Below, piece after piece: positions 3,777 through 9,857 of a stretch of 64,000 nucleotides of DNA (within the stretch, counting starts at the first letter, position 1; every line of letters begins with the position of its first letter). A program made the translations under genes and the position numbers. The notes beneath the pieces were generated by a model that had not been told where the DNA came from, made no database searches, and saw only the letters and a program-made list of their open reading frames with translations. Origin of the DNA: Psilocybe cubensis (lineage: Eukaryota); NCBI GenBank assembly GCA_017499595.2, contig CM039000.1, forward strand, positions 2,542,001 through 2,606,000, written 5' to 3'.

Positions 3777-5961
3777 ATCCGCGAATGGATCGGCGGGTAC
3801 AAAAACCGAAGATCTTGATGCGTATCGGGGCACTCTGGTTGGTGGGATTGAGATTCCAGTGATTTGTACCCGACTTGTGGACACTTGTTCCTTCGTTTGT
3901 TGTTTTGATTGGTGTGCTCCCATTGGTTTATGGCAGACCGACGAATGATGGAATTGACTTTTTATAGAATATTTTAATTAGACTTTCTGGGGTATAATCT
4001 GGCTGAATCACTCGGGGCTATTAGTCTAGCACTTGACTGTGGGCTTAGATTAACATTAATATGTCGTTCCAATTCAGTTGTCCTATCCAGTCTTTGATTA
4101 AGCGTTCAAAACCACAGCCATCTAAGATGTTAGAATGCTTCCGAGTCAGTCTGAACAGTACGCTGATGCGACCCCCGCCAAGGCGGCCGCCAATAGTCTT
4201 CTTCGATCTGACGCGCCTCGGTCAGCAAAGTGTATCCGCCTATCGAAATCCTTGACTTTTCATTGTTCAACTTTTCTGGAATTACGGCGGGTAGCCGGGC
4301 TCGCTGCCTGGTAAGCTTAAGGGTCCGCTCGAGGGCGGCGCTCATCAAAACTCCGTGTCCTAGAAGACAAAGTGAACCCCATCCCATGTCATTTCGACTA
4401 CTATGTGTTCATTTGCTATCAGAGGACGCCACCTTCTTTGACTCTATGTTAATGTTTACCGACTCTGCAAACGGTCTATAACTTCACTAGAACGATCCGA
4501 CTCCCGTACCCGGTATGGCACGTCCTTCCGTACGCCCTTGGAAATTTGCGCTCCCGTGTACTCGAATTAAAGTTCTCAAGGTCTTTCCAATGCCCGATGG
4601 AAGGAATGGTTACGGAAACAGAAACGTCCGTACGTCAGTGGTGAAGAGCATAGACGAAGCTTCGGACAATGCGTTCCTTGTTTCTGCCTGGTGGCCAACA
4701 ATCTCGCCAATGTGCTGGGTTATGCCTACCAAAACATATCTGCCCGTCCCCAAGGAACCGTTTTTTTCATTACCTCCGTGCAGTGCATGAAGTGCGCGTT
4801 GCATATCTGGGAGATGGTTCCTTGTCCTGTCATTGGCCAGCATCCGTTCACCCTGTCTTATGTCAAACCAAGGTTCCTGCAATCGGAGGACAAAGTTTTC
4901 ATACGCGACACAGCATGCTAGCCAATCAAAGGTCTCCAAACCCAGAAAATGTCATGAAGATATTTTCAGCCATTTTAGGTGCTATGTACGCGAGCGCCCC
5001 TGCAGCAACTCCGCATTGCCGATGACCTCACCTCACGGTGGAGAACCGGAATAAAATTCCAACTTGTCAATAATTGAGTCAGCCAAAATCCTGACCTCGA
5101 AGCGCTCCGAAAAAAAAGAGAGCAAATTTCTTTGCCAATCGAGAGCCTGACTGGAAATTTTAGAAAGTGTTTGATCAATACTCTGGCCCGCAGACAGCAT
5201 GATTATTTATTCTCTTCTCAATTCACCCTCACGTTTTCTCAACACAAAGACAAAAGATTCAACAATTTAAATACTATAAATCTATCACCCCCTGGCCAAC
5301 TGCCACTCTCCATTTTAATATGGCTAAATGGCTCATCACCCTGTGATCTAGCTGGACTCCCATGAATTATACTGCGCGCGCCTTGCCTTGCTTCGGGAAG
5401 TCGCTCACCCCATCATCTATCCCATCTCAAAATAACACTCCCAGTAAGTTTGGAGCGTCCTCCGCTATTGGAATAACCTCTGGTATCAAATATACCTACC
5501 TGACATGCGAAGTCATTTCCCGAGCGATCGTCATATCTAGGTAGTTTATTTTAGGAATCCCGAGTCTATCGTGGTTTTGGTGGATGAGGAGGACGTATGA
5601 CTTCGAACTTTATTCCATCCCTTATCGATGATACTGTATGCTTAAGAAACAATCTATCACAAAGATAGTCTGCATTAGTAGTTTCTAGTTGACGTCAAAA
5701 GTATGCGTTTAGATGATGAATCAGAATGTTCTATTTCTTCTAATTCTATAAGCATTCAACGGGCAGGTTTTCCTGAAGCGTACATCTCAAATAATTATGA
5801 AAAGAGCCATACTCTTTGAAGCCACGATTAACAAGATATCTTCCATTTTTCAAAAGTACATCGACGGAAAATAAGAAACCCAATGGTATAATGTGTATAT
5901 GAATATGAATATTTGAGAGTGTCGCTATTAAAGTTAAGTGTGGTCAACGTGATGCAAATAC

Positions 5962-8863
5962 TTAGAGTTTAGAGGATGGCTCTCCAAGAGCATATAGCGC
6001 GTCCAACTCCTTTTTGTACATGTTGTACGCATCTTTGCGGCGAACTTTCATCGTAGGCGTCAAAGTGTTATTCTCCACGCTGAACATGGTAAGACTGAGG
6101 TGAACTCGCTTGACAATTTCGAATCTACAATGTAGGTTATATGTGTTCAGATTGCAGGAAGATTTCACGCAGTTGAATGGTAACGCATACCCTTTGAGGC
6201 CATTCTGCTTCCCGATTTTCATCAACAGTGATTCGACGTGGCTAATGACACGACTATCCTTGCAGGCAGCGGCAAGAGCGGCGACGTCCTCTGGGGCGAC
6301 CTTATTGCCCGTGACGCTGGAAACAATGCCAGAAAATTGGACTGGATCGGGTACAATGACTGCGATCAAGAACGACTGCAGACCATCACTGTGGACATAA
6401 ATCTGCGCAATCAACGGCGTGCTGCTATAAACATTCTCAATCTTCTCCAACGCGACATACTCTCCCTGAGCAAGTTTCATGATGTTCTGCGGGTTTAGAC
6501 AAAAATTACTCCTTAGCATCATACAGACGCGCGTCGTAATGGACGATGGACATAACTCACCTTGACACGATCGATGATCTTTACACGACCACATGAGTCA
6601 AGTTCCACGACATCTCCGGTGTGAACCCAGCCTTCTTCATCCACGGTTTCCTTGGTATTCTTTTCGTCTGTCGCAACTTTTAGACATGTCAACGGAATAA
6701 TTGGGCGTTTGCGTACCCTTATAATACGTAGTGAAACAGTTTGCACCGCGTACGCACAACTCTCCTCTGGGGTTAGGTTTATCCTCAGAAGTATAATTCA
6801 TGGCGGGCACATCGACCAATTTGATTTCGTTGATAGGCTGGGGAGGCCCAACCGTACCACTTCCTGTAGGGTCATTGGGCCACACCTTGCACGTAGTCGC
6901 GCAATTTTCAGTCATGCCGTATCTAATTTGGCATACAATTAAGGATCATTTTAGAAGCAAAGTTTATGCGGTGTCAACTTACCCTGGGAAAGAATGTTGA
7001 AGTCAGCCATGTGTATACACAAAATTTCGCAAAAGACACATCAACTCTTCACTAACCTTCTGCAACTTCGCATGCAAATGCAATTTTGAGGAAATCCATT
7101 ACATCAGAACTGATGGGTGCCGATCCGCTGGTTACGAGTTTGATACGCCCACCAAGAACAGCTTGAATCTGGTCGCAGAAGATACTGAGACAATTTTTAC
7201 TTTGCAAGTTCAATGTGACGAACCTTGCGGAAAACGAGTCTGTCCCAAAATGCATGCGTGACTTCACCAGTCTGGTGGAGGGTGGCAAGCTTAGTTTGTA
7301 CCGCCTTATTAAACAAAATGCCTTTAAGACCTGGCACATTGCCGCCAACCATTGCGGCTTGATATACCCTATTTAGTACACGAGGTACGGAGGGGAAGAA
7401 ATTGGGTCTTAGAATTTGAGCATCTTCCAGAAGGCGCAGAGGGTCTCCAGTAAAGTAACCAATTTGCCCTCCAACGGCAATAGTGCAAAGTTCGCAGACG
7501 CGCTGTGCCAATGTGAGACAAATTTATCTCGACTGTTCAGGGGCATACCTCATAAATATGAGCCAATGGAAGGTAAGACAGCAAACAAGCGTCTTCGGGG
7601 AGCATTAATCCGTACATGTTGCTATGGGTTGCAACGGCCAAGTTCTTGTGCTTCAGAACGACACCTGTGGAAAGATGATATGAGTTACAAGAAATTGATA
7701 TCAGATGTTCAATAAATTACCCTTGGGGTTATTGGTTGTTCCCTATGGTCCCAGTTAATTCTATGCTACATCTAAAAATCGCTCTTTGACTCACAGAGGT
7801 GTAGCAGATAGATGCAACGAGATCCGGATAAGCAGGAATCGGTTCAACATAGTTTGCTTTGCCAAAGGCCTCGACTTGACATTACTTGTGGTTAAAATCT
7901 TTCCAGTGGAATAATTATGCTACTCACGTTCAGCGAACTCCTTGAAGATCAATCCTTGAGATTCAGACCATTCCCTGAGCAATTTAGAGGCTTCGGCAGA
8001 GAGTGGGTCCATGCAGACGATGGCCTTGAGCATAGGGACTCGATGGGCGGTCTTCAACAACAATGGAATGTGTTCAGATGTTGCGAAGATCACGGTGAGA
8101 TGTGAATGTTCAATGCTAAAATAGAATTAGTTGCGTCCAGTAAAGTAAAAATGAAGAAAATACATGTATGCTAAGGTCAAGTTAGTACCACATTGATTTG
8201 CGATCTTTCGGCGAGCACGCACCAACAGAATCCTTGCCAAGGGTATCATACAAACTGACGGACACCTTCTGGTAGCTCTGTAGAGCAATATCGACAATTT
8301 GCCATTCTGCACTCGTGTCAGTTACCAAAATTTAGTAGTCAGGAAACGAAGTGTACATACCAGGACAATTAGGAGCCCAGATTCCAACAGTCGGATATTC
8401 GCCACCACCAAGAACACCTTGTGTGAACAGTGTGTGAACAGCACTGCCAATATGACGCCTCTTGACATCAACTTCCCCGTAGGTCTGCCATGTGTACGTA
8501 GGAGCAAACTTCAAAGGGTTGGTGGAGAGGATGGGGCGGCGACCCAAGAACGGCTTATTCTTGCTCTTGAGGAGACCTTCGGCGAAGATTTGGTCCAAAG
8601 TAACAAAAAGGTCAGGAGCGGTCTCTTCAACGAGACCCCAGATGCCTACAAAAGGTTAATATATGTTTGGCATTTGAAGTTGGTATGCGACACACCGTTG
8701 CGGTAATGAGCTGAAAGTAGTCAAGTCAGCTACTTGTAGGCGCTGCTATAAATTTGGGGAACCAACCTGTTTGGCCGGGACGCTTTGTGCCGGGTACGGC
8801 AACGGATTGCTTATCGTATGGCATGACTGTGGGCCATTGGGCAACTCGCTCGCTGATAGACAT
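5962..8863 (-). CDS. Long-chain fatty acyl-CoA synthetase (Faa2/ACSL-like), PTS1 -SKL
   Basis: Spliced motifs CYTSGTTNNPKG, SYLPLAHIYE, GSAP, EGYGMTE, GWVHTGD, IIDRVKNIMKLAQGEYVA, LTPTMK. C-terminus ...EPSSKL; ATG at 8863. Confidence 0.95.
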
Positions 8864-9857
8864 GATGGAAGTATTGGTTGAAGGTGGTCGTGGATGAAGA
8901 GAGATGAAGAAATAGAAAGGAGGTGGATGGGGTTGAAGGGTTGAAGGTGGTCAGGGACTCGGAGGTGGTTTCCAGACAAGGACACATGTGAAATCAATCT
9001 CTCGGCAAGTCTCAGCCATCAACACCATCGGCTCATTGCTCAACGCTGTTCACTCACTGGCTTTTCTACCAACATTCTACCAGCCCATCTACCCACTCGA
9101 GTTGAAGATGACAAGTCGATGAACAACTCACAGTCCTCCAAAACTTTTTTCACAAATAACACGGTTAGTTGCGATCAACCTACACCATCAATGATACACA
9201 TCATCCTCATCCATGTCCGGTATTGTCGCCAAATTGTTCCGGGTCCGCTCGTCATTTCCCCACATCACCTTCGGCCTGTATTGCATTTGCAGTCGGCAGC
9301 CGGAAAGTTTTTGGAGCCGACCTACGGTTTATTTACAGAGCACAGGCGCCCTCTATTCGGCTAGAGCTGATTGTAGTGCTATTTTTCATCTGCACCAAGA
9401 GGCAGGCATCCGACTGCTGGTGAGATCGATAAAGATGCAGAATACCATCTAATGTTAACTTAATTCTATTCATGTCGCTTGAGAGTCTTGAGACTGAAAG
9501 AGGTGATAAATGGTAAACAGTAATTCATATGCTGATCGTCATCCAAGTTTAATAAAATAGTAATTCATAAGGCTGATCATCTGAGAATTGGTCAAGTCAC
9601 AAACTACAGCAGACATCTCGAACAATTATAATACATAGTATTTAAAGAGTCACAGGACGCACGGAAATCTCATTCCGCCACTTCCGACCAAAAAACTTCC
9701 CTGTACTTACTGGTCACAAGACTTCACCATCCAACTCGTATGCCAATTGCTATCATTGCTATCCAGCCTCCGGACATATGATTACTCAACTCATGATTTA
9801 TAACAAACTGCAAATATGTCTCCTCGGTCGTCGTCTTGCTATCATTGCGATTAGCGC

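Follow-up and report, generated by a model that had tools for sequence, protein, structure and literature searches.

Evidence for a one-nucleotide exon within the glycine codon of the GYGxTE motif in a long-chain acyl-CoA synthetase gene of Psilocybe cubensis

The window analyzed here is a stretch of 64,000 nucleotides (nt) of Psilocybe cubensis (assembly GCA_017499595.2, contig CM039000.1, positions 2,542,001 to 2,606,000), and its minus strand carries a long-chain acyl-CoA synthetase gene in which an exon ending in GAAG is followed by a 73-nt intron, a lone G at position 6983, a 60-nt intron, and an exon that opens with ATAC (Table 1). The glycine codon of the motif EGYGMTE is composed of G, G and A from three exons, and the reading frame is open only when G 6983 is kept. 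With this base in place, assembly and translation of the exons gave an open frame of 685 amino acids from the ATG at 8863; with the base omitted, the frame shifted and translation ran through ...AEDTA to a stop after 4 codons. Each of the two introns has a full set of splice signals (donor, branch-like site and acceptor), the branch-like sequence being CTGAC in intron 1 of the pair (A 19 nt before the 3' end) and TTAAT in intron 2 (A 16 nt before the 3' end), and both lengths lie inside the 46-74 nt range of the gene. A single canonical intron was considered as well, and between the flanking exons the window offers zero GT..AG parses. The original prediction, which had been made from the sequence letters, claimed this order of exons and introns, a frame shift upon skipping of the G, and complete introns of normal length; cutting the minus strand reproduced the coordinates, and the translation and the splice signals agreed with the other two claims. 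G 6983 is almost certainly a constitutive one-nucleotide internal exon between two U2-type GT..AG introns of this gene.

Five sequencing runs matched the window (X1 to X5); X1 and X2 belong to one study and X3 to X5 to another, and the share of sampled words was 0.55 in X1 and X2 and 0.96-0.97 in X3 to X5. Contigs of X1 to X4 were aligned to positions 5960-8960. X1 and X2 provided one contig each, of 2228 and 2213 nt respectively, for each of which 12 joints were listed, and all 15 introns of the gene were absent from both, which identifies these contigs as spliced-transcript sequence. Nine of the joints simply left out 46-74 bases, which in the minus-strand reading are bounded by GT..AG, and two contained letters (7 at 8115->8223 and 14 at 8646->8767) and represent two-intron skips around micro-exons. 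At the site of interest, the joint ran from 6922 to 7056 and left out 133 bases (6923-7055); 1 base could be assigned to either flank. The outer canonical splice sites are 134 apart, so one extra base is kept in the transcript; positions 776-888 of the record hold 113 letters where the upstream exon has 112 nt, and the additional letter aligns with a G in the minus-strand reading. These data show that the mature messenger RNA (mRNA) contains a single G in addition to the flanking exons, placed between them and completing the Gly codon. An additional base giving EGYGMTE is what had been predicted for cDNA or RNA sequence. The fully spliced form was the only one present in both transcript assemblies, and contigs of this kind drop rare variants.

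The DNA contigs of X3 and X4 spanned the whole aligned stretch and did not differ from the window at 6923-7056, so that an assembly error, which had been named as a possible refutation, is unlikely. The sole differences between these contigs and the window were at 6390 (both) and 6298 (X4). Across the runs, T>C at 6390 was found in X1 to X4 and G>A at 6298 in X1, X2 and X4; over this gene, no aligned run (X1 to X4) is letter-identical to the window.

A metagenome scan provided 80 loci, and in 72 of them tblastn located both flanking exons. The region separating the Glu and Tyr codons was parsed, which gave 35 distinct two-intron sequences, the window included. G/GT..AG/G/GT..AG/N (slashes mark exon borders) was the sole fit in 48 of the 72 loci, and four others (L052, L060-L062) have this layout too, except that the donor of intron 1 is GC, for a total of 52 two-intron loci; a canonical single-intron parse was present in 0 of these 52. 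An intron at the first position only (G/intron/GN) was found in four loci (L021, L028, L036, L040), an intron at the second position only (GG/intron/N) in two (L017, L050), and 14 loci were intron-free at this codon. In the GC-donor loci, intron 1 starts with GCAAGC or GCGAGT, and the internal AG-G-GT is unaltered.

Among the 35 distinct sequences, A-G/G/G-T was invariant (35/35), G occupied position +5 of the second donor in all 35 and of the first donor in 28, and a branch-like YTNAY motif lay within 40 nt of the 3' end in 34 copies of intron 1 and in all 35 of intron 2. The introns varied in length (49-73 nt for intron 1, 50-68 nt for intron 2), and intron columns tallied away from the splice signals held little information. 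When the interiors of these sequences were shuffled, any AG-N-GT two-intron parse appeared in 12% and a parse with N=G in 2.1%; with 35/35 real sequences showing it, the layout exceeds chance. The presence of AG-G-GT in orthologous Agaricomycete genes, raised by the original prediction as a way to check it, was thus borne out in 52 of the 72 metagenome loci. Locus L016 was considered as a G-skipped transcript with a 2-base gap, and this candidate was rejected: the junction is intact, EGYG is read in one frame, and the junction is intron-free. A separate 1-base insertion or deletion (L016:520-700), located about 35 nt upstream of the junction within the FLKI codons, shifts the frame and may be a sequencing error or the mark of a pseudogene.

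The relatives with one intron or none were then compared with the two-intron loci. The lone-intron loci L017, L021, L028/L036 and L040 carry further introns elsewhere in the gene and are therefore genomic DNA; the lone intron stands at the matching phase-1 position of intron 1 in L021, L028/L036 and L040, and at the phase-2 position of intron 2 in L017. L015, L020 (nearest named protein from Piloderma) and L065/L066 are genomic and intron-free at this codon. L050 shares 94% identity with the genomic locus L046 but lacks seven segments of 51-58 nt present there, among them intron 1 of the pair; it keeps intron 2, reading Glu codon, G, G, and then GTAAGG.... The simplest reading of this comparison is that L050 is a partly spliced transcript from which intron 1 was removed exactly at the internal AG. 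Among these relatives, either intron can occur without the other, and excision of intron 1 is possible with intron 2 still in place.

In a tree of 106 flanking residues, which is weak and has many open forks, the lone-intron and intron-less loci fall among the two-intron loci. A separate group of 12 rows (L043-L062) contains two introns in every genomic locus, the one other row being the transcript-like L050. The layout is common to Agaricales-like sequences, Boletales-like sequences and a more divergent agaricomycete-like group. We infer from this distribution that the layout is probably old, and that one or both introns were later lost in some lineages.

With respect to mechanism, both introns are probably recognized by intron definition and removed consecutively. 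Intron definition is usual for short fungal introns. U1 bound at the second donor (positions -3 to +6) would overlap the AG of the first acceptor; simultaneous occupancy of both sites is for this reason unlikely, and consecutive removal is probable. No order appears to be forced by the sequence, as neither splice site would be made by removal of the other intron, and the context is nearly unchanged by either removal (AGG/GT before and after, CAG/G before and after). The G is probably the favored base at this position, since it suits both +1 of the acceptor consensus (YAG/G) and -1 of the donor consensus (G/GT).

Several points weigh against the reading of G 6983 as a constitutive one-nucleotide exon between two introns. 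Runs X1 and X2 are labelled 'RNA? (a guess)'; they are assembled contigs rather than reads, in which minor isoforms and splicing intermediates are invisible; and the aligner absorbs the extra base into a flank, leaving the identity of the G ambiguous. Taken by themselves, the RNA data are also compatible with one intron of 133 nt whose termini are TT..AG or GT..TA. L050, a single assembled contig that belongs to another organism, could be DNA of a retro-copied, partly spliced RNA, although a retro-copy would carry the same splicing message. The tree that places the intron losses rests on 106 columns, with many forks unresolved. If the transcript joint is taken literally ('skips 133, ends CT..AA, both 1'), a single non-canonical intron would be removed in one step and the internal AG-G-GT would be coincidental, and the 12% of shuffled interiors that contain some AG-N-GT parse give this a chance precedent. 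However, the introns of the gene outside the pair are all GT..AG and 46-74 nt long, and 133 nt is about twice the usual length; AG/G/GT is kept in 35/35 sequences while the other parts of the two introns diverge, against 2.1% for N=G in the shuffles; each half occurs as a lone intron in genomic relatives; L050 has intron 1 cut precisely at the internal AG; and four loci have at the first intron a GC donor, a usual U2-type variant. One-step removal of a single intron is accordingly very improbable. A base missing from the genome sequence, with the real gene having a single intron and a Gly codon whole in its exons, would likewise explain a one-base frame problem at an exon junction, which is a common sign of an insertion or deletion. 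The probability of such an error is close to nil, because the X3 and X4 DNA contigs are identical to the window over 6923-7056 though they differ at 1-2 other positions, because the layout is repeated in 52 orthologous loci on many contigs, and because a complete internal acceptor and donor could not be created by an error.

The constitutive exon might in addition serve as a regulated switch, in which skipping or retention leads to a premature stop and mRNA levels are tuned by nonsense-mediated decay (NMD). All mis-spliced forms do stop within 2-4 codons of the Glu codon, and one transcript contig retaining intron 2 exists in a relative (L050). However, both transcript assemblies contain the fully spliced form only, subject to the loss of rare variants noted above; stops upon retention are common to any coding-region intron and hence unspecific; and the product is a housekeeping-type enzyme, for which the lineages of L015, L020, L017, L021, L028 and L040 manage without the arrangement. 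A switch of this kind, which the original prediction had suggested for skipping, is unlikely. A more far-reaching proposal is equally improbable, namely that of an ancient Agaricomycete exon (on the order of a hundred million years) whose abutting splice sites would enforce a strict intron-1-first order, with transcripts that retain intron 2 or skip the G serving as a regulated NMD brake on fatty-acid activation.

To place the one-nucleotide exon in its gene, the features of the locus were collected in Table 1. The 22-nt micro-exon codes for GTTNNPK, the middle of the phosphate-binding loop YTSGTTNNPKG, and a second catalytic motif of the enzyme is thus likewise split by very short exons. At the joint at 8646, the aligner shifted one G across, by which the 15-nt exon shows as 14 letters; this is the same ambiguity as that which hides the one-nucleotide exon.

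Table 1. Features of the long-chain acyl-CoA synthetase gene (window coordinates)
Feature	Position	Strand	Description
Long-chain acyl-CoA synthetase coding region	5962..8863	-	16 exons, 15 GT..AG introns of 46-74 nt
Upstream exon	7057..7168	-	112 nt; ...FACEVAE, with the first G of the Gly codon at its end
Intron 1 of the pair (gene intron 11)	6984..7056	-	73 nt; GTTAGT...CTGAC...CCCAG
One-nucleotide exon G	6983..6983	-	Second base of the Gly codon in EGYGMTE; transcripts and orthologs
Intron 2 of the pair (gene intron 12)	6923..6982	-	60 nt; GTAAGT...TTAAT...TTAG
Downstream exon	6717..6922	-	206 nt; third base of the Gly codon, then YGMTEN...; Pfam AMP-binding positions 319-384
Open reading frame including stop	5962..6597	-	
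15-nt micro-exon	8696..8710	-	Letters inside joint 8646->8767 of X1 and X2
7-nt micro-exon	8164..8170	-	Seven letters inside joint 8115->8223 of X1 and X2
22-nt micro-exon	7721..7742	-	Joints 7662->7719 and 7741->7794 with cut shifts; translation

A protein search with the exon downstream of the G returned 213 proteins, of which 120 are listed and tallied here; the named ones among those listed are mostly AMP-dependent synthetases or long-chain acyl-CoA ligases of Agaricomycetes, or hypothetical proteins. The Pfam family PF00501 (AMP-binding) matched the public P. cubensis protein P0120 with an E-value of 1e-54 and the ortholog P0002 with 2.3e-72; the window exon (6718-6921) matched profile positions 319-384 with 6.5e-13, and the one-nucleotide exon falls at profile position 318/319. 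The relatives in the PDB belong to the ANL enzymes and comprise carboxylic acid reductases, 4-coumarate-CoA ligases and luciferases. The translation contains YTSGTTNNPKG, EGYGMTE, HTGD and PTMKVRR, which we take to be the motifs of the ANL family known as the phosphate loop (TSGTTxxPKG), GYGxTE, TGD and the segment with the C-terminal catalytic Lys. By its PF00501 match and core motifs, the gene is assigned to the long-chain acyl-CoA synthetases of the ANL superfamily; chain-length specificity and activity are predicted.

The public P. cubensis model P0120 ('Long chain acyl-CoA synthetase 6, peroxisomal') agrees with the window model over its full 665 residues and has a single gap, in which 20 residues are missing from the Gly/Tyr of the motif onward, GYGMTE included. 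This agreement assigns the window to P. cubensis or to a strain almost identical with it. The gap is explained by the sequence, as a cryptic AG lies 60 nt inside the downstream exon, and the Pfam domain of P0120 is interrupted at residue 429. An NCBI name is carried by 69 of the 120 listed proteins, and the remaining 51 were tallied separately. Normal ...EG YG.TE was found in 40 of the 69 named orthologs, and 29 were aberrant exactly at the junction, with 1-2 extra residues, intron read-through of 3-20 residues, deletions of 4-20 residues, or a start at the motif Met. Of the other 51 proteins, 41 were normal and 10 were short frames opening at or just before the downstream exon, or intron read-through. 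The claim that such exons are missed by gene predictors therefore holds for the P. cubensis model, which lacks 20 amino acids, and for the 29 aberrant named orthologs among the listed matches.

The aberrant models carry further traces of the junction. The read-through models P0009 and P0016 end in '...P G / YG' (the slash marks the exon border), matching the intron end CCAG plus the lone G. In P0011, P0012, P0014, P0030, P0082, P0085, P0095, P0096 and P0114, exactly one residue is inserted between EG and YG; this residue is K, Q, H, V, I, D, T or E and matches the coding value of the three bases past the GT of intron 1 (for instance GTCAG for Q, GTAAG for K). The one-residue insertions suggest homology-forced gene models that read into the donor.

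One-nucleotide exons have been described in other systems. In Fusarium, the CYP621A P450 gene has a one-nucleotide exon with 20 orthologs within the genus (Nelson & Syed 2026, PMC12940212). The two cases are alike in that both are fungal genes with an AG-G-GT core (AGGGT), an exon that supplies the middle base, G, of a Gly codon within a conserved motif, and two short introns totalling about twice the usual intron length; both also have transcript support, conservation in orthologs, and gene models that fail without the exon. The argument that G fits both consensus positions was made for CYP621A as well (PMC12940212). They differ in that CYP621A is a P450 of Ascomycota, compared to an ANL acyl-CoA synthetase here, and in that CYP621A is known within Fusarium, whereas the layout described here spans sequences with identities down to 66-70% in a conserved exon and is accompanied by lone-intron relatives and a partly spliced transcript.

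A long-read re-annotation of Coprinopsis cinerea (Cell Genomics 2025, PMC12230235) lists 13 one-nt, 57 two-nt and 27 three-nt exons. C. cinerea likewise belongs to the Agaricomycetes, and its one-nucleotide exons are real internal exons whose omission breaks gene models, the comparison with the present case being one of counts only. The original prediction had called one-nucleotide exons extremely rare, and with 13 of them in C. cinerea (PMC12230235) this is overstated for Agaricomycetes. In Arabidopsis, a single-nucleotide exon in APC11 was tested with reporter constructs (Guo & Liu 2015, PMC4674806); it is similarly a constitutive one-nucleotide exon between two GT..AG introns, for which its authors argue intron definition and sequential removal, but its introns are longer and its host is a plant. 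Which base is present makes no difference to the splicing of APC11 according to PMC4674806, whereas the G here is invariant, because the codon needs G. A Cryptococcus genome paper, in the passages considered, gives micro-exon search settings only and reports no one-nucleotide exon. For the present gene, full-text searches of the literature yielded no report of a one-nucleotide exon, and the supplementary gene list for C. cinerea may include an ortholog.

Two related splicing systems were also compared. Stwintrons resemble the present pair in being two adjoining U2-type introns of filamentous fungi that are removed consecutively, but the inner intron of a stwintron interrupts a splice signal of the outer one, which forces the order, and no base between the two survives splicing. 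In the present pair, all splice signals are intact, each intron is complete and one base is retained, and a reading of the site as a stwintron was rejected; the comparison with stwintrons drawn by the original prediction is no more than an analogy, as neither intron depends on the other for its splice sites. Zero-nucleotide recursive splicing in Drosophila similarly uses a juxtaposed acceptor and donor (AG/GT) in turn; however, the Drosophila ratchet points leave no base and remove very long introns, whereas here one base is left and the introns are short. The one retained G rules out a zero-nucleotide recursive splice site.

The exon is deeply conserved, and while the principle is already in print for Arabidopsis, Fusarium and Coprinopsis, the case of this gene is new. 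In public protein sets, a core enzyme of lipid metabolism has one of its catalytic motifs deleted or distorted, and enzyme inventories, phylogenies and structure predictions built on such models inherit the error. A possible rule for the repair of these models would be a phase-1 exon end and a phase-2 exon start, separated by a gap of about two intron lengths that contains an internal AG-G-GT. If the NMD brake were real, lineages missing one intron would have lost that control. With loci that have both introns, either one alone or neither, together with a GC-donor variant and a partly spliced RNA, this gene family offers a natural series for an abutting acceptor and donor.

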